Positions 4,283-64,000 are shown, counted from the stretch's first letter. The stretch: 64,000 bases of DNA from Massalongia carnosa (GCA_965645245.1 OZ287074.1:434001-498000), one strand, 5' to 3'. Notes: generated by a model not told the origin, from the sequence alone. A program made the numbers and translations.

Positions 4283-6643
4283 TTACCGTCTACTTCGTGT
4301 CGACCTTATTGTGGAGGGGGCAGGATCGAAAGCATCATCGTCATCGGAGATCTCATCATCGCTAAGCTCTTTTGTAACCTTTCCTTTTTTGTTTGATTGA
4401 GTGGTAGGGTGAGAGAAAGCAAGCTTGGTCTGCGTTGAAGACGTACTGGCAGCCCCTCGGGCAGCCGCACGCTTTACAGGCGGAGCCGATTTCTTCGGTG
4501 GCGCGGTTTTTTTGGGTGCTCGTACTGACGGTGCTGGCTGAACAAACAGTTGACTCTCGTCTTCGTCAGAATCGACCATGACTACATCTTCATCTTCCTC
4601 CTCACTCTCTTCTTCAACTGCTTTCTTCTTACCTCTTGAGGGCTTCGTAGGCGCGGCTTTTTTCGCGGTTGCTGGGGTCTTTTTTGTGACTACTGCCTTC
4701 GCTCGACCTTTCGCAGCAGGTTTAGCGACAGGTACCGCTTCCTCCACGTCTTCATCCACGTCCATATCGGAATGAATGAGAGCCCCTGGTTGATCGCCCC
4801 ATGAACCACCATCAAGATCTGAATCCCAGTTCTCTGGCCGTGGCTTAAGTTTGGCTTTCTTTGTCCTTCTTAGATGCCCTGCCGCAAAGAGTTCCTCAAG
4901 CTTCGACTTATGCTGATCCATAGCGCTGTTCAAGTCGTCTTCGTCAAGATGGTCAACGTTCATCAAATGCTTGATCTGATCTAACAGGCTCTCGTTCACA
5001 AACATTTCCATAGCATGCTTATCATCCTTATCAACAAATTGACTGACTGCGTCTCCGAAGGAGTTTTGAGGTAGAATGGTTAGTGATTGTGCTGTAAGAA
5101 ACTCTCGGACTAGTTTCTCAACCTTCACGGAGTCGATCGAGAGCTGAGCAAGTATTGAATCCTCTGGTAATTCTGAACCATCTTGTGCTTTGCGAGTACT
5201 CCCTGCCTTTTTCCGATAAAACTGCACAACATCATTCACGTTCGCTACCTTTCCAACGAAGCGGTTAGAAAAGCGCTGCGGATTTTCGCAATCAAAATTT
5301 CCTCCCTCGGGCGCTGAGTATTCCACTCTAAGCCGAATCAAGGGTAAAGGTACTTCGGGCTCATCGTCGTGATCTCCTTCCTCCTGTGCCTCCAACCATT
5401 CTTCCTTTGCTTGCTCGATTAGTCTTTCAACAACTTCCATCAAGTATCGAGTTAACAAAGTTCGATTGTCTTTCTTGACGAAAGTCTTTGCAGTCTTATC
5501 CTCCGAAAGAACGATCTCTTTCATCACAAAGGGCCTGACTGTTTTCAATCTGATAGGTTCCACCTTGAAGTCTCTCCCCGTCACGCTAAGCACTGCAACA
5601 TGCTTCGGCACTGCCTCGCCAGGCATTAAGGATGTTGCCACCGAGGATCCTGGTTGCATGACATGAAAACTTGTTTCGGGGTTGTAACGGGGATTAATGA
5701 TGCACTCATGCTCATGACCCCAGACCACCAGATCGAGGAAATCAGGGAGGAAGCTTTCAGGAAGGTAGCCTGTTTCCGTGTATGCATGACTGTCACTTCT
5801 CAGATTATCTTTGAAATCTTGTGCATGAGTGTCACTTACTGGTTCTGGTGAACGCTCATGAGATTGAACCAGTCCTGTTTCTGGGTGCCTGGCTGGAAGA
5901 ACTTGACCTTTCCATCTCTAAAAGTTCTGAAAAGTCGCTCGTCCCTTATGTTACTCATACCATACAACGCCAGTTTAGTTTGGCCTTTTTGCAGCAGTAC
6001 GGGCTTTATGAGTATATTATCAGATTCAGGGGTCCGCCCATAATAGTTGACCAGCCCAGATATTTGGAGCAGATCTAGAGCAGCAAGGTGGCCTTCCTAG
6101 TAAGTGTAAGCTTGGTATGGGGAACATCGTTATGGAACAATAACAAACCCCTGATGGATCGTCGTGATTACCATGTATCGAGAAGACAGGTATAGCAACG
6201 TTGATATCTGGATCCTCGTAATTGACATGATTAAACGCTCTACAGTACACCTAAGCTTAAGATTCTTCTTCGTCTACCAAAAGAGTAGCATACCCTTGAA
6301 AGTTCTCACTGCCATCACTGAGCATTTCCAGCTCGCATGGTTTCTCCCCGTAACAATTCATCCTCAGCGAACGCATAACCTGGTACATGGATTTCCTCGA
6401 GGGCTTGTTATCATGGAAGAGATCTCCAGCAAGCAACACCATATCAACATCTTTTCCTTTGGCCAAGCACATAACCTCATGAAAGCTTTTCCAGCTGTCA
6501 TCACCACGGATATGATCCCGTTCGCTGTAACCCACATGGCTGTCAGTGGCTACGAGAATACGGATTGTATCCGCAGCTAAGAAGTTGTTAGCGTTGAGAA
6601 TTATACAGCTTGCAAAGACTGACTGGCCTGTTAGTGCGGGCAT
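4283..6643 (-). CDS. MRE11: Double-strand break repair nuclease Mre11 (multi-exon)
   Basis: Phosphoesterase motifs [37 protein letters not shown] and [33 protein letters not shown]; acidic/basic tail. Confidence 0.97.
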
Positions 6644-6866
6644 ATTTCAGGTAATTATCTTCAGTGTCTTCTTTCATGGAATTCGGAAATCTGTTTTCAA
6701 ATCAAAGCTACAAATCTGGACGCGGTCAAGTGGGTGAAACGCGCCTTATCTTATCTCACTAGATCTTAGGTGAGGAGGCGCTAAAGCCATACTTCAGACT
6801 ATACAACTATCGAAATCAATTGCAGTCGATCTTTAAAGCGCATTTCACACGCTCATTAAGCTCGTA

Positions 6867-7373
6867 ATGAATTCAACGAGGGTACTACTGGCACGCTCAG
6901 TGTGGAAAGGTCTGGTTTAAATGCTCTTCCATTGACACCAAATACTAATCATGAGGATAGGCCCGAATATAGTGCCGTACGTCTGAGCTTGAAATCATCA
7001 TCTTCGTTTTTCGCGTCGTGCATTCAGCTTGACCATTGCGGACAACCGATACATCTATAACTAACACGACTGCCCGGTCCAGACTTCCAGTCGTTCACCC
7101 ATCGCCCGGCCAACGCGTACCTCCAATCAAGACAATGGCTCGCTCTGCTACAATCCTACCGAATTTTGTGGGCCTCAAATTCCAAGTTCACAACGGCATA
7201 ATCTACCATGACGTGTTAATTACAGAGGCCATGGTTGGGCACAAGCTTGGGGAATTCTCACCGTAGGTGATAGACTTTTACTATCTCTTTACTCTGCTTG
7301 GACTGAATGTGACTCTAATACAGACTACAGGACAAGGAAACATTTTGTCTACAGATTGAGTAAAAACAAATGA
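6867..7373 (+). CDS. RSM19: Mitochondrial ribosomal protein uS19m (4 exons, including a 16-nt exon at 6961-6976)
   Basis: Spliced product [22 protein letters not shown]...[24 protein letters not shown]...[31 protein letters not shown] is the S19 signature. Confidence 0.93.
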
Positions 7374-17193: not shown

Positions 17194-19507
17194 ATGGAAC
17201 CTATTGGCGTAGCAGCTTCTCTCCTTACGCTGGCGAGCACTACGGCTGAGGCCATCAGGTTTTTCCGTGCCCTCATACGACACGCCATCCGGGCTTCAGA
17301 GATTGCACCAGCATGTACGACAGCTACGCTTGGCACTTGACCTCGAACTTCGATTGAATTTTAATCAACTTCACGCAAATGTGCTCGTGGGGTCTCCAGG
17401 CCTTAACTTGGAAATGACGGTGGATTTCGAGTCCTCGCTGAGTAATGCTCGAAGTTGCCTAGATTCGATCGAGAAATCCTTAGCTATGTACCAGGACAAA
17501 CCTAGCAAGATTGTATGTGGACGCTGGGTTTAGCAACACCGAACAGAGATCCTCCAGCTAGTTGAAGATATGCATCATATCGTTGCCTCAGTACCTCAGA
17601 CGTGCGTGGGCTCTAGGAGCCGTCTAAGCCCCTCCGGGTTAGCCTATTTCGCTAAGCTCCTTCGGATTAGCGTCTCAGCTGACTAACGTGGCTGCGATAG
17701 CACGTCTGAGCGCAAAACTAAATATTACGGTCAGATATTCGTAATAAATCGTGTATTATTGCAAATTTTCGACATTTTGACGTCTAGCTTTTTCGTTTGA
17801 CACGGGCTATTTCTTCGAAAGAATTCAAGTAGAATTTGTATAGAAAGATTTCTGAAATTCCTGTTCGTTGTAAAGTTCATGTGGGGCAATCTGATTGCAC
17901 TTCGCATAGAAATCGAGAATCGACTTAACGAAAATAACAAGATGTATGTAAAATTGCTCTGCACGTTATAAACATAAATAAATATTGAAATTTATAACGA
18001 AAAAATCAAAAATACATTGATCATGATCATATCAAGCGACGACGACGTTACAAACATGAAAACAATGAAGTTGTGACGTTTTACTATAATGTCGAAATCG
18101 TTCTTGTCATGATCGTTAAGCCATATCTGACCGTAATCTTGAGTTTTGGGCTCAGACTTGCTACAGATGTGCTGCGTAGTCAGCCTGTTAACCCGAAGGG
18201 GCTTAACGTTCTGTAAGGCTAACCCGAAGGGGCTTAGCCGGGCACGTCTGAGGTACTGAGGCAATCATATCGAGCAGACAGTGATGAGCTTACTAATAAC
18301 TATCTCAACGTATAAGAATCCTTTTACCGCGAAAGCAATTTGATGCCTAACAAATGCTCCTAGATCAATAGCATCGGCATCATACCACCAGCTGAATGAT
18401 ATTAGCTCCCAATAGACGCGCACCCTCGAGCAACTTAAGGAAATGAAGGGCTCGAATAACACGCTAATGAAATCTACTCACTTGCAACTGATAACTCCAT
18501 GGCTTATTGAATTACCACAGCTTGATCCACCTTAAATCCTTGAAGTCCAGAAACAGCGAAGCTTGGTAAATGTGTATCACACTAGACCTGGTTGCAAAAC
18601 CACCAAGAAGAGGTCCAGTAATACTTACTACATGGTTTTTGAAAATCAATGGGACGAGCTTCGGACAGTATACTGGGTTTCAGGAACATTTCGACTTCCT
18701 TCCATTTTGTCAGCATACGCACTGAGCATTCAAGCTAGAGCGACTTTTTCGGTGCTACTTTAGCCATCATTTTCGCAATCCGCGTCTCTAATAAAGAGTA
18801 TAGTGCCATATGACTCCGAATTCATGAAGGCTTGTGATGCTGGTAACTATGAAAGCGCTAGAAACATTGCTTTGGATGGGAAAGGGAGTCTGACCGATAT
18901 CGATGAGCACCGCCAGCCATCGCTTCATGTAAGTGAGCACAGTCTATTGTGGATAATGCTAATTGCAAGATTTGAGGGCCATCAGGGGTGGTTGTTATGC
19001 GCTGGTTGGGTTTTTGCTTGAAAATGGCGCTAGCGCCAACGAACCCGATGGGGTTATGTATGAGTACGTACAGGGACAATCGCTATACTCCTAGCACTAA
19101 CTATGATAAGGATATCATGAAGTATTATATAATGGGCTCCAATGTTGAGACAATTGATTGCCTTGTGGGCCATATGCCTGCCGAATGGATTCACACGCGG
19201 GATTGTCAAAGAAGGATTGCGCTGCATCATGGTTTCTACCTCCCTAGTCCTTTCGCGGATGCCATTGCTGGATGTCTTATCAAATCTGGTGCAGATATCC
19301 ATGCTAAAGACGACAAAAGGCCTTTCTGTAGGAGATATTGCTAGAGATATTGATGGTGTTTCCAAAGGCCATTCTGTTTGGAAAAATGGAACCTGTCAGA
19401 ATTTTGACGCTTGGCTGAAGACACTTCGATCTCTCGGATATGACGTTGAAGTTGACGATGAGGGAGGGTTTGATCTGGCTAGCAGCTCAAGGAACCTGAT
19501 TCTCTAG
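17194..19507 (+). pseudogene. Degenerate gene with a fungal STAND-type N-terminal helical domain and ankyrin-like repeats, interrupted by a TIR element
   Basis: Starts MEPIGVAASLLTLAS. Later fragments EFMKACDAGNYE...SLH, AIRGGCYALVGFLLENGASANEPD and LIKSGADIHAKD are ankyrin-like. There are frameshifts and an in-frame TAG at 17531-17533. The frame reads through (VEDMHHIEQTVMSLL) once the insert is removed. Confidence 0.65.
17583..18264. mobile_element. 682-bp non-autonomous TIR DNA transposon (MITE-like)
   Basis: Perfect 23-bp TIR TTGCCTCAGTACCTCAGACGTGC (17583-17605 and 18242-18264); TSD TCATATCG at 17575-17582 and 18265-18272; hairpin-rich subterminal regions; AT-rich interior without a convincing ORF. 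Confidence 0.95.
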
Positions 19508-23200: not shown

Positions 23201-23483
23201 TGATGATGAGATAAAAAGTTGAAAAAAAGGAGTGTGTTTTGATGGGGCATTCAGGGGTAAATTCGCTTACACGTTGCAATTTATTTTGTCACCCGCGTGG
23301 CAAGTAAGAAAATTTCGAAGGTCCAGCTTCGAAACGAATAAACAACTGGATTTGATTTGATTAGCTTATCTGGGAGTGTTCATCTAAGGAATGAGGATGC
23401 CAAGATAGTGAAAAAGAATGTCCCGGTATTAGATCTCGTTTGTTTTTACCAGAAAAATCATGTAACCCTTCCATTCAATGGTT

Positions 23484-34472: not shown

Positions 34473-36254
34473 CTAAAATTTTAATATTGAGCCTTCACCC
34501 CTCTGCTCCGTTAAGCTCGTGGTCGGCTGCGCCCCTCCGGCCGTACCCACCCCGCGACTCTCCGGCTGTAACTTAGCAGGCTGAAGTTTACTTTCAAAAA
34601 TATCATTTGCAATACCGATCCCCAGCGGCACTCCCCCAATAGGGAAAACTTGCCCTGTCCGATCTCCACGCTCGCCCTTCGTGGTGTACCGTACATCTTG
34701 TGGAGCCTTGTATGCCGACGTACCGTCCTCATTGACTTTCATCGACGCCAGCGCGTCGGCAGGTGCGAAGGCGTCGAAATTCCAATGCACGCCCAAGAAA
34801 ATACGGCTGAGCCCAGTCTCAAACATGGCGGCCCAGAGGCTGGGGAAATGTCGCTTGACACGTGTACGCACGGTACCGAGCTGGTCGGTGATGGGGACGT
34901 TAGGGTCTAAAGGTTGGCGCAAGTCGCGGCTCACGCCATTAAGCTCGTCGGAGACGAAATCGAAGGCTATGGTGTCTGGCTCGTCAGGCGCAAATTTCAG
35001 GCCGTCACGTTGCTTGTAATATAGGCGTATAGTCTGGAAGAAGGCGCCCGCAAAAGTGGCATGGCCAGAGGGGTAGGCGGGGAAAGGCGGCTTGAACGGA
35101 ATGGTGTTGTTGTTGGTTGAAGGAGCGCCGAGGGTGAGCCAGAAGGGATCGCGGCGCGGGCCCGGGTCTTCGCGCACACCCGTCAGGGGCCGCCAGAACT
35201 CGAACGTGTATTTAGCCAGCCAGGCGAAGATGCCCGCGTCCCCGAGCGCCGTGTTAGCAAGCGCGAAGAGGCGCGCGAAGTCAGCGTTGTTAACCTCGTT
35301 ATCGGGCTCGTTAGAGCGCTTGCGATCCCAGGCAATTTGCCGCAGGATCTGGTTGAAAAGACGAGGGGGAGTACCAATGAGGTTTGCGCCATCGTAGGCC
35401 CAGAAGTAGCCCACGACTGTTTGGTCTGGGGTGCGGCGCGTGGTTCTTAAGGTTGGCGCGCCGCCTTCGCGGTAGACGTCGTCGACTGCCGCGTTATACT
35501 CATTGACGTTCTTGACCCCAGCGCCGACTGGAGGGTCGGCAATGAGGTGTTCAGTCGGATCACCGTTGACCAACCCCTGCACGGCAAGACGCTTAGCTGT
35601 CAGCCCATAAAACGGTGCATCGTATAGGCGGATCGCCCTTGTAGGACCGTTCGGGTTATTAATGTCGACGGGCACAATGCGCACCGGGTTGGTTGGATCG
35701 TCGTCGAACTTATATAGTCCCCCAGGGGGGCGATACGAGTCCTGGTCAAAGCCCGGTTCGTCGGGTTTAATAGCCAGCAGATCCAAGATGGCTTTCCCAA
35801 CCGTGGTCCCAAATCGGTAAGCCGGCGCGAGGGTGTTCAAATTGGGAAAGGCCCGCACGGCATGCTGTATGTACTGGCTCAGCTGGTCGGTTGTGGCGCG
35901 CGCGATCCCCGGGTCGGGAGTAGTGTATAGCTGATCAAAGACAGTTATGGCCGCGCCCGCCACGGTTAGCCGGGCATCTGTCACCCCGTCAGGGACTTTA
36001 GGGAGGCGTGTGGCCGGGTCCGAGCTATTGAGTTTGAGGTAAGTGCTGTGGGAGGAGTCTGGGTGGATGGAGAAGTAGGCGTCGTGGATGGCTAGATGAA
36101 GGATAGCGAGGGCGCGGGCGGTGGATGGGGGTTCGTTCTGTGGTCCGGCGATAGTGTTGCCCAGGCGGGTAAGGTCGAGCGCGAGGTTGTTCCAGTAGAG
36201 AATATAGTTTTTGTTATACTCGGGCGGCTCCTCTGTGGGAGGTAGGAGGACCAT
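34473..36254 (-). CDS. Vanadium-dependent chloroperoxidase (intronless)
   Basis: [29 protein letters not shown]; vanadate-binding motifs [26 protein letters not shown] and [13 protein letters not shown], as recalled for the Curvularia inaequalis enzyme. Confidence 0.93.
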
Positions 36255-36917
36255 GATTGTTTGAGACTCGGAATTTCGATGGAGAACTTGAAATTTGCAA
36301 AGATAATAATCCTTCAAAAAGATCCAGTCAGATATTCATAGAATGTTTTTTTTCCCCAAGTCTTCACGTCCACATCCAATTATTTATAATGAATCTCTTC
36401 CATAGCACATCAGGCTGCCATGTGTTCCGACGTCCTTCAGATCCAAAATACATAAGCAGAATTGCCTTTCTTTCCAAATCGCGTGCTCTTCGTAATTCCT
36501 TCGTCTCCACCTCCTCCTCCTGGCCATGAGCTCACAAATTCGTAGCGCCACAGACTCAGCTAAAAGTTTGTAAATGATCAGCTGATTAAGCCAACTCCAT
36601 ATCAGCCCATTCTATCAATAGTATCACCAATCAGGCCGAAAAGCCATAGGTGATAAATTCCCTACATTTATTTTCACATGATCCTCCAAAAATAACGAAT
36701 CAGTAATGCTCTCGTGTCTTTTCCCTCCCAACTAGAGATGAGACAAAATCCGAGGGGGGGCAAATTATTATCAGGCCAGATGTTGCCTTTGATGCCCCAC
36801 TCTTGAACAAAGCTGCGGCCAATTCAAATCACGAGTTCACAATAGTGGGGGCAGATTTAGGATCATGTTGTGAAGAGAGATGTTTTAGGCTATACTGAAC
36901 TAGTTATAAGGAAACCT

Positions 36918-60210: not shown

Positions 60211-61672
60211 TTAGTGAACATATCTGCGTGGATTTCCCAGTAGCTTTTCATTCTTCCTCCTCAACCATCCTGCTCTTGAACACCTGCGGACTTCTCCTTG
60301 GGGCCTCGCCTTCTAACTCAGAGTGTGTTTCCATCCTGTTGTGCATGGTTAGAGAAGATGGCCGAGAAATGTGGTTTGCGGGGGTTAAACCTACATTTTT
60401 GGCGTAGGACTTAAAGTTTGCCTACGCACATCGTCATAAGCAGTCATGTCGCTGTACGCGCTGAAGGTGTTCTTTTTAATCGATCCTGAGGTGGAAAGCT
60501 CCGCTGGCGGAAATGCCGGATGCGAGCCGACAGTGTTGTCGTGATAGGGTTTGAACTCGGTCATGTCGGAGCGCGGTGAGCCGAAGGACCCTGGTGAGTA
60601 CGGTGGTTGAACCGCAGAGCTGTAGTGCACATTTGGGTCTAGTTCGGCCGGAGGTGAGGGTGTGGGTCGGTGAAGACGCTTCAGGTGCTGAAGCAAGGTT
60701 GTATGGCGGCCCAAGAGGAATAGGAAAGCGCCGACTAGCATGGCGACTGCAACGCAGCCGATGGAAATACCCGCGATGGCGCCGGGCGACAAATGGTGCG
60801 TTGGAATGCCAGAGGATTTAGAGGTGTTCGATGAGGTGGGAGCGTTGGGGGATTCAGGGTTGGTGGATTCCGGGTTGGTGCCATCTTCGTTGGGGAAACC
60901 TTGGCCAGGGACGATCATGTAGGAAGCTGCCTTTGCGTCGGCTTTTTGCGTCGCCAGTGATGTGGTAGAATTCTGACTGGTTTAGTTACCGCGGGGGGTT
61001 AGGGCTGAGGTGGTGCATACCGGATTTATCACGCCTACCATTTGCGACTTGATGCATGATCCCGGGGCTGAGCAGTAGAAAAAAATTGGATCAGTGTCAT
61101 TGATCAGGAGACGAAACGTCGGGGGCTACCGGCTCATGATTAGCACAGTTGACGGTCTCAGATATCCATGCCTACATTTTCGACGATGGTGCTAAGAGCA
61201 TGAAACCCAGAGAAGAAGCCAACTCTGCCTGTACCGGTCAATTCGTATGGTATGCATGGCTGTTCATATGCGGCTCGGGCCACCGAATGATTGGGCGGAA
61301 AGAAATTGAACTCTATGGTATTTTGGCGGATGTCAGCCTCTCTTTGGTTTTTGTACTAGATTCTCAATACTCACCTACAATATCACCCACGTTGGCGTTA
61401 ACACTGTCGGGCGAGTATTGGAAATTGTCCTGTTCACAATGACGGTGTTTCAGCATTGGCTCTGACACAAGGTGTCATTGTAAGCTGACCTTTCCCACAT
61501 CGATGGTATGTGTTGGTGTCCCCTGACTAGACTTCGAAGCCGACATGGTCTCCAAGGTGGGCGAAGGATTTGAGGTTGATTGTGCTACTTTGGAGGTCGT
61601 TTGCGCTGATACGGCAACGACGAGCAAACCGAATGAGTAACACACCCAACGAAAGATTCCAAAGCCTCTCAT
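60211..61672 (-). CDS. Secreted/membrane-anchored cupredoxin-like Ser/Thr-rich protein, multi-exon
   Basis: Signal peptide; spliced HTIDVGK, FQYSPDSVNANVGDIV, FNFFPPNHSVARA...PCIP...FFSGF and PIFFYCSAPGSCIKSQMVGVINP; TM segment LSPGAIAGISIGCVAVAMLVGAFLFLL. Last exon tentative. Confidence 0.8.
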
Positions 61673-63155
61673 GGTGAATGACTATTGTACTACGCATAAA
61701 CAGATTATGGAGAACGAAGAGAAAGCGAGAAGATCAGACTGCAGTAAGAGCGTGATTTTCCGGAAAGTTTGAGATCACGTTAACGACGATCAAGCGCCAG
61801 CAAGCAAAGCGACAAAGTCAGTCAGAGCAAAAGGAAAAACAGTCCGTAAAGAGCACTTGGAATGGTTGTTAATAGCTTGAAGAAAAAGAAAATACTGTTC
61901 CGCTCATCGAATGGATCACGAGTAATGATTCCAGCCAAGCCACACAGTTCTTTTTCCACGTCTTTGTTGGCAACGGTCTGACCTAACCCAACTCCGGCTA
62001 TCGGCTCATTGTGCTAGGTACGCTGGCACGCTGGACAGAGGTACTCAGTACTGACCTTCGTTCAAAGGGAAACCAATGACCTAAATATCTGCAAGTCTTA
62101 CTCAGCTGACAAGGATGGGAAACAAGAACATCAGATACTGGAAGGGCTGAACTTCATAGATCTCCAAGGCAAGACGCAGACGCAGATGGAAACTGTAGAA
62201 CATAATCTGTACATAGATGGCTAGGTAGAGCCGTGGTTGCATTGCACCAAGAGGTACGGAGTATTTGTGGGGCGGACCGCCGCGTTGGGTACTCAGTATT
62301 TTATGTGAACGCCGATGGAACGGCATTCGAACGTTTGATAGCTGATTGGATGGACGCAAATTATACTAGCGAGGTCGGTATCCGATATCTCAGTGCTCGC
62401 TTGCCCTAACACCCTAATGCCCCGATACCATTGTATAAAATCAATTCAGTGGTGATCTTAGGGTTGCTGTATCTTAGTCGAGCTAATCAGGTATCTAACC
62501 ACCCAACCTAACGAAGCTACGGAGTAAAAGATGCAGGGCTTTGGGGCAGTGCACCAACACAAATATACTCCGTACAAGCATACGACTGATCTCCGCCACC
62601 CCCGCATCAAGATAAATACCCGGGAAGGCCGAGGTTCATCCTGACAAATGTTTGCTTCAGCCAATCCCAGTCAATAGCGTCATCGCATGAGGTACTCTGA
62701 AGTGTGTACATGTACACTGTACTCTGTAAAGTGTACTTCGTATCGATTTACCCGTATTGCACGAGAATCCGCCTTAGCGTAGACGTGTATATCTAAATTA
62801 CCTTAGCCTCAGAAAGCTAATAACAAGCACGGTATGTGAACATTGAGTAAAATCTTCCAGAGTATTGCGAAGGGGTGCTGTATGGTTTTGTTGAAATAGG
62901 TATATGATTATGACTATATGGCTATGTAATAAATGACAATGTGTATGACCCCCTGATGTATAACTAAGATGAAGAGTTGCTATGGAGCAGTCTTAAGTGG
63001 TCACCCTCTACTAAGCGAAGTGATAATAGTTTATCCGAGCCTAGGTTGCCACGGTTGCCACGCCCCTGAAAAAAAAACTGGCAACGTGTAAGCGAGCTTA
63101 CCCCACTAAAATTTACCCCTTTTTATCAACATTTCACCTTTACATTGCGATAACC

Positions 63156-64000
63156 TTGCCTCAGTACCTCAGACGTGCGTGGCTCTATGAGCCGGCTAAG
63201 CCCCTCCGGGTTAGCCTATTTTCGCTAAGCCCCTTCGGGTTAGCGTCGCTAATTCCCTTCGGGTTAGCGGCCCTTTAGCTGACTACGCATGCTACGGGCG
63301 GCACGTCTGAGCGCAAAACTCTGTATTTTTGTCAGATCCGGCTTATTTTGGTGCGCGCTCATACAAATTTTTGGCTTAACCTCAAAAATCATCAAGAATC
63401 AAGTTGACGGCGGAATCAACAACGCGCAACGACATTTCATAAATTATGTAATAATAGAAATGATGCTTTGATATACATTCTATCGATTAATCAATATTTT
63501 AATTACATATCGATGCAAAATTGAGTCGCAATATCGATCTCGCGACGAGGACTCGACTTTGACTCGAAATTTCGACACCACCACAGCAGACTCAACGGGT
63601 CACTAGCTCCAGTTTTTCATTGTCGGCGCTTCTGATCATTAATCTGATCCTCCGAGCGTTGTTTTCGAAAGCCTAAAATCGTTGAATGTGATGAACTTGC
63701 TTGATGTGCGTTTTGCGGGCTAAGAATCCAACTCGCGAATCGTCGAATATCGCTCGCGAACACATCGAAATGGACGATCCTATAGCGTCGATAACTCGCG
63801 AGCAGGTGACGACCGTGATTTTAAGTAAATTCGGCTTTTATCCAAAGAATGAGCAAGTTGACGCTATCATGACTTTAGCACAAGATCAAAAGGATCTGAT
63901 ATTTATCGCCAAGACTGGATTTGGAAAGAGTATTATCTTTCAAGCTATGCCATTAATGTTCTCTTGTCTTAAGATCGCTTTAATTATCATGCCTCTCAAG
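63156..64000 (+). mobile_element. Left end of a TIR element of the same family as 17583-18264, carrying a helicase ORF; truncated by the window edge
   Basis: Begins with the identical 23-mer TTGCCTCAGTACCTCAGACGTGC and shares the subterminal hairpins through GCACGTCTGAGCGCAAAACT (63301-63320); flanking DNA differs from that of the other copy. Confidence 0.9.
63770..64000 (+). CDS. RecQ-like superfamily-2 helicase, N-terminal fragment (open at window end)
   Basis: Manual translation MDDPIASITREQVTTVILSKFGFYPKNEQVDAIMTLAQDQKDLIFIAKTGFGKSIIFQAMPLMFSCLKIALIIMPLK shows a motif-0-like FG...Q..AI, Walker A AKTGFGKS and motif Ia IIMPL. The frame is also open from an upstream ATG at 63704. Confidence 0.85.
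   Translation, partial: MDDPIASITREQVTTVILSKFGFYPKNEQVDAIMTLAQDQKDLIFIAKTGFGKSIIFQAMPLMFSCLKIALIIMPLK

Follow-up and report, generated by a model that had tools for sequence, protein, structure and literature searches.

A family of DNA transposons with hairpin-rich inverted-repeat ends and a RecQ-like helicase gene in Massalongia carnosa

A 64,000-nucleotide stretch of the Massalongia carnosa genome (GCA_965645245.1 OZ287074.1:434001-498000; hereafter the window) breaks off inside an element that opens at position 63156 with a terminal inverted repeat (TIR) and then runs into an open reading frame (ORF) resembling RecQ-type helicases. What kind of element is it, and does the helicase gene belong to it? 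Our analysis indicates that 63156–64000, the first 845 bases of a long copy, is probably the left end of a long, helicase-carrying element, and that this element belongs to a family of class II (TIR) DNA transposons in a filamentous, probably lichen-forming ascomycete. What the helicase does for the element is a much less certain matter than this overall reading. The long copy is laid out as follows:

63148–63155 (no strand): predicted left copy of the target-site duplication (TSD), CGATAACC, directly preceding the TIR; the TSD of the family is 8 bp
63156–63178 (+): left TIR of 23 bp, an exact match, with the tandem octamers CCTCAGTA and CCTCAGAC inside it
63156–63337 (+): structured subterminal region common with the short family member, an inverted repeat enclosing a stem-loop and hairpin units
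63338–63769 (+): spacer separating the structured end from the helicase start, presumed to hold the promoter and 5′ untranslated region; not common with the short member
63770–64000 (+): start of a RecQ-like superfamily 2 (SF2) helicase gene, part of exon 1 with motifs 0, I and Ia; the frame is open at the window end

The 23-nt sequence TTGCCTCAGTACCTCAGACGTGC occurs three times in the window, at 17583 (+), 18242 (–) and 63156 (+), each time with zero mismatches and against zero occurrences expected. None of 100 dinucleotide-preserving shuffles contained a match to it, even at up to three mismatches. The first two occurrences delimit a short element:

17575–17582 (no strand): left TSD copy of the short element, TCATATCG; the right copy lies at 18265–18272, a perfect 8-bp repeat
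17583–18264 (+): non-autonomous miniature inverted-repeat transposable element (MITE) of 682 bp, with perfect 23-bp TIRs at 17583–17605 and 18242–18264 and hairpin-rich ends

This element has the properties of a MITE: it is short, TIR-bounded and TSD-flanked, lacks coding capacity and belongs to a family of many copies; no ORF of at least 200 aa in the ORF listing overlaps it. Its left end is 93.5% identical to bases 1–92 of the long copy, and long-copy bases 146–182 are 84% identical to MITE bases 118–154. The long copy exceeds the MITE by one 24-nt hairpin unit, and the likeness between the two stops at about base 182. A preliminary description of this locus had paired the two elements by a 23-bp TIR and a structured end. 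Both features are indeed common to them, the TIR exactly and the hairpin-rich end over about 180 bp, and the 682-bp element is the gene-less, TIR-bounded short member that had been proposed, with a perfect 8-bp TSD.

The family extends far beyond the window. The exact TIR was found in at least 122 stretches of metagenome assemblies, and 121 of these loci (L001–L121, 975 kb in total) were taken for analysis; the prokaryote genome set and the viral contig set each gave zero exact matches. With up to four mismatches allowed, forward-then-reverse TIR pairs numbered 26 (the window plus 25 from metagenomes) and were spaced 166–1470 bp apart. Five of the pairs represent the same site in two assemblies, which leaves 21 distinct sites. 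A perfect 8-bp TSD is present at 15 of them and a TSD with one mismatch at one more, and the duplicated sequences are varied. For the element in L015, reading by eye gives a TSD matching at 7 of 8 positions. Tabulated across TIR copies, as the preliminary description had suggested, the 8-bp TSD turns out to be family-wide, and many TIR-bounded copies with a TSD of fixed length bear out the proposed transposon family.

MITEs are far more numerous than long copies and lie beside ordinary genes at many of the loci examined. The ORFs of the 1,470-bp element in L055 gave nothing significant. Two other candidates were set aside. A 12-kb contig with a TIR near each end (L082/L083) was considered as a full element, but its TIRs face outward, so that it holds unique DNA between two elements. 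A 749-aa ORF in L029, without a Pfam family, was considered as an element gene, but it sits outside a 172-bp MITE.

The long copy has a sharp left boundary. Logan contigs of four sequencing runs (X1, X4, X6 and X7) were aligned to 61001–64000; no RNA run is listed among those that contain the sequence. An 8,942-bp contig from X7 matches 63156–64000 with four differences, has an unrelated flank before 63156 and continues for 5,154 bp past the window end, covering at least 6.0 kb of the element from the TIR. It is the same element at another locus, with a boundary precisely on base 1 of the TIR. In X1 and X4, copies of the target sequence that are not interrupted match the window up to 63155, that is, through CGATAACC, and then continue with the unlike sequence AGTCAATTGAAAGC... 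The long copy is thus inserted into another, very high-depth repeat, at about 62919–63155. The unique 11.3-kb flank contig of X1 ends at 62918, and summed k-mer depth in the X1 bins covering 62801–63300 is 10,000–41,000 versus 137 in the unique flank. Three element contigs of X1 have a k-mer depth of about 5,470–5,650 against the same 137 for the 11.3-kb contig, depths that are a sign of repetition and not a copy number. The target repeat probably reaches further left, to about 62800. Elsewhere in the window it has only one match, of 50 bp and 82% identity (23254–23303), and a search of 62500–64000 against Rfam returned no match.

Runs X6 and X7 are labelled as other organisms. Their element copies are more than 99% identical to the window copy (two differences in 755 bases and four in 845, respectively), and no contig of theirs lies on the unique flank 61001–62918 at 90% likeness or more, a gap in contig coverage that proves nothing. 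If the runs truly stem from different species, these copies are a lead for horizontal transfer, from which we draw no conclusion.

We then turn to the gene. An open frame extends from 63701/63704 to 64000, with in-frame ATGs at 63704 (upstream) and 63770, and the helicase start lies 614 bp from the first TIR base. The frame reads ...FGFYPKNEQVDAI...AKTGFGKSIIFQ...IIMPLK and contains motifs 0, I and Ia, in agreement with the RecQ-type ORF proposed about 600 bp inside the element. The 77 aa from the ATG at 63770 match the Pfam family DEAD with an E-value of 4.3e-4 and 20.5 bits, below the 26-bit cut-off. When the window ORF was searched against PDB, the top 13 rows were all WRN helicase (best E-value 0.007), followed by DDX41 and RecQ5. 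A 147-aa protein, P0001, is 100% identical to the window ORF and occurs on 16 contigs, the longest of 2.4 Mb; the 90% cluster to which it belongs comprises 24 members, on contigs of Mb scale.

In all 13 relatives found, similarity is lost just after a conserved 'YTH', a position that we take to be a conserved intron with its splice donor. A profile of the 13 N-terminal pieces retrieved 2,949 representatives at E ≤0.001 and 437 at ≤1e-10. Among the best 150 relatives, the 14 longest (492–895 aa) all have DEAD and Helicase_C near the N-terminus, with a weak RecQ_Zn_bind in three of them and HRDC in one. The top PDB matches of one relative, P0044, are E. coli RecQ (7.9e-20), WRN, RecQ5, RECQ1 and BLM. 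NCBIfam recQ_fam is the top model for five of five relatives, at 110–169 bits, under its cut-off of 219.8 bits. When longer forms were sought, 14 proteins (873–1046 aa) came up, and every Pfam domain in them is helicase-related. The two that are most distant have RQC and HRDC and are canonical RecQ proteins; a source name is given for one, 'MAG hypothetical protein' of Flavoplaca navasiana. Throughout the range of 490–1046 aa, the relatives have helicase Pfam domains only and no transposase domain. We call the protein RecQ-like and divergent because recQ_fam scores stay below the cut-off, RecQ_Zn_bind is weak and the best PDB matches are RecQ and WRN. By its sequence relationships, the gene is a divergent RecQ-like SF2 helicase that stands alone and is not fused behind a transposase domain.

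Further ORFs, probably of the same assembly as the members of the P0001 cluster, correspond to the following section of the helicase. They include P0286 (340 aa), in which we read the motifs DELH and QRMGRAMR. In three further helicase fragments, probably of that assembly, the DExH box is altered to DGLH (P0212), DGQH (P0240) and DKMH (P0217). Side by side with the intact DELH of P0286, the altered boxes point to a genome with both decayed and intact-looking helicase copies. Both the P0001 and the P0003 cluster are represented in that assembly, which makes at least two subfamilies. Look-alikes of P0191 in the ESM Atlas are eukaryotic DEAD/Helicase_C clusters, mostly from Basidiomycota, and serve as leads only.

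Is the helicase gene tied to the TIR or merely next to it? By tblastn, a helicase exon lies inward of the TIR and reads inward in seven metagenome loci (L025, L016, L073, L078, L021, L064 and L002), with 38–63% protein identity to P0001; one was also found in L043 with the relative P0044. Measured from the first TIR base, the position equivalent to the window ATG lies 577–614 bp inside in seven copies, the window and six loci. In L064 the spacing is 979 bp, because this copy has 410 bp inserted in comparison with L002. The insertion is accounted for by a repeat of about 250 bp: it occurs twice in direct orientation in the 7.3-kb element of L057 (interior 556–811 and 6711–6966) and once, inverted, in L064 (591–839), and looks like an LTR (long terminal repeat) retrotransposon nested in L057 with a solo LTR in L064. 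The helicase copies of these loci carry ends of different subfamilies, and the seven helicase-bearing loci are flanked by ordinary genes.

The helicase gene is an ancestral, integral part of the element and not a recent capture. Since the linkage recurs and the X7 likeness starts at the first TIR base, both a single-copy host gene and a chance neighbor are excluded. The preliminary description had weighed a single-copy syntenic host gene against its own proposal. The gene proves to be multicopy instead, given the contigs that carry P0001 and the other locus in X7, and its recurrence in seven further loci at such divergence makes the helicase a conserved part of the long member.

The ends themselves are elaborately structured. 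The inner 11 nt of the TIR (63168–63178) have a perfect inverted copy at 63301–63311, and between the two lie a 5-bp stem-loop (63181–63193) and three 24-nt palindromic hairpin units (63193–63269). Folded as single-stranded DNA, 63156–63320 forms a closed multi-hairpin structure of –41.9 kcal/mol (z –5.58), which none of 200 shuffles equalled; the two MITE ends gave z-scores of –2.5 and –3.9. Among 100 non-identical ends from the window and the metagenome loci, each with an exact TIR, 75 have the inner inverted copy (at most one mismatch, 41–300 bases inside), compared to none of 100 shuffled ones. A few of the inverted copies, at 144–193 bases, are the right TIRs of very short elements. In the copies examined, an end has one to four palindromic hairpin units within a subterminal stretch of about 100–180 bp, and the sequence of the first hairpin varies between subfamilies.

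What lies beyond the helicase exon was sought in the metagenome copies. Among the long copies with a helicase, some (L025, L073, L078 and L021) are truncated by contig ends and the others are heavily degraded: 10 kb of L064 and 7 kb of L002 contain no ORF of at least 90 aa. GC content in long-copy interiors is 0.17–0.39 (L064, L067, L002, L043, L016, L046, L058, L059, L068 and L070). For the first five of these, TA/AT is 1.35–1.63 and (CA+TG)/(AC+GT) 0.06–0.16, as against 0.63–1.04 and 1.08–1.31 in the flanks of long metagenome copies; between L002 and L064 there are 353 transitions and 49 transversions. By the usual threshold values of these indices, the degraded long metagenome copies bear the signature of repeat-induced point mutation (RIP). 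They nevertheless keep intact 23-bp TIRs, and the short MITEs of the same assemblies look unaffected. The window copy has no RIP signature (TA/AT 0.68, (CA+TG)/(AC+GT) 1.31), and the family may therefore still be active in this genome.

Homology among the long copies extends at least 5.4–5.8 kb from the TIR. A right end was searched for with the reverse complement of each long copy's own end, which found none, and by collapsed Smith–Waterman comparison with the MITE right end, in which scores stayed below shuffled maxima. L018/L062 and L019 begin like the MITE right end; they are RIP-degraded and mutually unlike further in. Six-frame translation of the L002 interior, with X at stops, matched no Pfam family and missed even the helicase, so that this search is uninformative. 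The ORFs beside unpaired TIRs that Pfam could name are host genes (CRAL_TRIO, DNA polymerase alpha subunit B and ankyrin proteins), and they adjoin short elements with degenerate right ends. A 170-aa second ORF in L025, tried as exon 2, has no similarity to helicases. The preliminary description had spoken of an autonomous or larger partner of the short element: the larger, helicase-carrying member is there, whereas autonomy is not borne out, as neither a right end nor a transposase was found.

How might such elements move? The 8-bp TSD implies that integration would involve an 8-bp staggered cut, of the kind made by DDE-type cut-and-paste transposases. The enzyme would be the product of a separate gene, located further inside the long element or acting in trans, and would bind the TIR together with the repeated palindromic hairpin units. 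The 682-bp element and most metagenome copies are MITE-type deletion derivatives that keep only the structured ends. As for the helicase, it could have a helper role: it might open the hairpin-rich ends or, by analogy with P-element gap repair, promote RecQ/BLM-type synthesis-dependent repair of the excision gap that restores the donor copy.

Several points weigh against the reading of 63156–64000 as the end of a helicase-carrying TIR transposon that moves in this way. No right TIR, right TSD or transposase was seen for any long member, and a partner TIR within 10 kb of L064 and L067 was not found even with purine/pyrimidine-collapsed matching. Across the 121 loci, some 9 to 14 unpaired ends resemble the left end of a long element (eight with a helicase match and six by DNA similarity alone, several being near-duplicates), and the number of demonstrable right ends is zero; long members may be very long, rearranged or asymmetric. 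Five TIR pairs have no TSD (L004, L007, L032, L034 and L035), some of them automatic pairings with degenerate or nested ends and at least one mis-paired to a degenerate right end. The helicase fragment in the window comprises only 77–100 aa and its Pfam score is sub-cut-off. Covariation in the hairpins is weak: double changes affect 4 of 19 consensus pairs, and the lack of variation in the closing stem is a product of the way the sequences were selected. The hairpin units may be either DNA structures or palindromic protein-binding sites. Finally, the role in transposition ascribed to the helicase is pure conjecture.

One alternative is that the long element is itself non-autonomous, a Pack-MULE-like cargo carrier with a captured helicase that has no role in transposition, moved, as the MITEs would be, by the transposase of an unseen master element with the same TIRs. 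That no transposase was found in any copy fits this explanation, as do the stand-alone helicase relatives of 490–1046 aa and the great excess of MITEs over long copies. Yet the same gene is kept at the same offset and in the same orientation despite 38–63% identity and different end subfamilies, and a single old capture retained through such divergence implies selection on the element. In addition, no helicase-free long element with a transposase was found among the 121 loci. We regard the cargo explanation as unlikely. We hold out rather less hope for a bolder version of the preferred reading, in which the family is an undescribed lineage at superfamily level: a TIR element with 8-bp TSDs that acquired its RecQ-like helicase separately from Kolobok and Academ and whose transposition would depend on the helicase acting on cloverleaf-like ends, possibly with an unconventional or unrecognised transposase.

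It is highly improbable that the element is a member of AcademH or KolobokH with atypical ends. Both occur in fungi and have SF2 helicases, and KolobokH is described as encoding a RecQ helicase and is reported only from fungi (PMC9587614, PMC10799480). Against them stand the TSDs, which are varied and 8 bp long here versus 9–10 bp in AcademH as far as described (PMC10045372), and, for KolobokH, also the TT...AA termini and a helicase whose motifs begin within about 60 aa of the N-terminus, 0.6 kb from the TIR. Multicopy telomere-linked RecQ-like gene families are known in fungi as well (PMC4522978), which would fit a host or subtelomeric gene of the TLH/Y' type, spread by recombination, with a MITE end upstream by chance. 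However, similarity between loci starts exactly at the first TIR base in X7, the TIR–gene spacing is kept in seven further loci flanked by ordinary genes, and the insertion breaks another repeat precisely after 63155; this explanation deserves hardly any credence. What the window reveals is a real and well-delimited family of TIR transposons, rich in MITEs, whose RecQ-like helicase gene is conserved.

The window is gene-dense, with long ORFs, as befits a filamentous fungus. It encodes a vanadium chloroperoxidase-like protein at 34476–36335 (–; VCPO_N, E-value 3.6e-86), and further ORFs correspond to Mre11, a DENN-domain protein, a RabGAP-TBC protein, VPS11 and a kinesin.

To our knowledge, few lineages of eukaryotic DNA transposons have taken on a helicase; those we can name are Helitron, AcademH and KolobokH, and we know of no established function for a helicase in cut-and-paste transposition. 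The present family has exact, recognisable ends, a clean 8-bp TSD, and abundant MITEs together with an un-RIPped, apparently young set of helicase copies in at least one genome. With these properties, it lends itself to the question of what a TIR element needs a RecQ-like helicase for. The family also suggests a rule for annotation: in genomes of lichen fungi, RecQ-like ORFs of this type should be treated as transposon genes and not as host repair genes.

How does the family compare with known systems? TSDs of 8 bp are typical of hAT, P, some MuDR, Zisupton, Merlin, Sola3 and Novosib elements, and no RecQ-carrying lineage is known to us among these superfamilies. hAT and P elements resemble the present family in their 8-bp TSD, short TIRs and repeated subterminal motifs; the TTGCC... 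terminus found here differs from the CAG/TAG termini of hAT. Helitrons have neither TIRs nor a TSD and encode a Rep/PIF1-type (SF1) helicase, in contrast to the TIRs, 8-bp TSDs and SF2 RecQ-like helicase of this family. A literature search of partial coverage, which did not extend to Repbase or Dfam, found no description of an 8-bp-TSD, RecQ-carrying TIR element; this is weak evidence.

Two fungal repeats share the RecQ-like gene. The CPA element of Tolypocladium inflatum and related Hypocreales is described as a dispersed multicopy repeat whose ORF is most like a RecQ DNA helicase and whose copy number varies between species (PMC3688495). It is thus similar in kind; its hosts belong to a different order, and the comparison is by description only, in the available part of which TIRs and TSDs are not given. 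Telomere-linked helicase (TLH/Y') families are likewise multicopy RecQ-like genes in fungal repeats (PMC4522978). These are subtelomeric, and no TIRs or TSDs are described for them, unlike the TIR-bounded copies among ordinary genes seen here.

The closest comparisons are with two lineages of TIR transposons. AcademH, the Academ lineage that encodes a helicase (PMC10045372, PMC10799480), is a cut-and-paste transposon of fungi and animals with an SF2 helicase beside its transposase. Its TSD is given as 9–10 bp and that of AcademX as 3–4 bp (PMC10045372), as opposed to 8 bp at 15 of 21 distinct sites here, which disfavors the divergent AcademH relative once suggested for this locus. Of the described systems, KolobokH, the RecQ-encoding lineage of Kolobok, comes closest: it is a TIR DNA transposon of fungi with a RecQ-type helicase as an accessory function. 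As described, Kolobok elements have a TTAA-specific 4-bp TSD and 5′-RR...YY-3′ termini, and in KolobokH the helicase sits behind the transposase domain (PMC9587614). Here, by contrast, TSDs are varied and 8 bp long, the termini are 5′-TT...AA-3′, and the helicase starts from its own N-terminus 0.6 kb from the TIR, with motifs 0 and I within the first 60–80 aa. Judged by these descriptions, the family is distinct from both AcademH and KolobokH in its TSD and in its gene layout.

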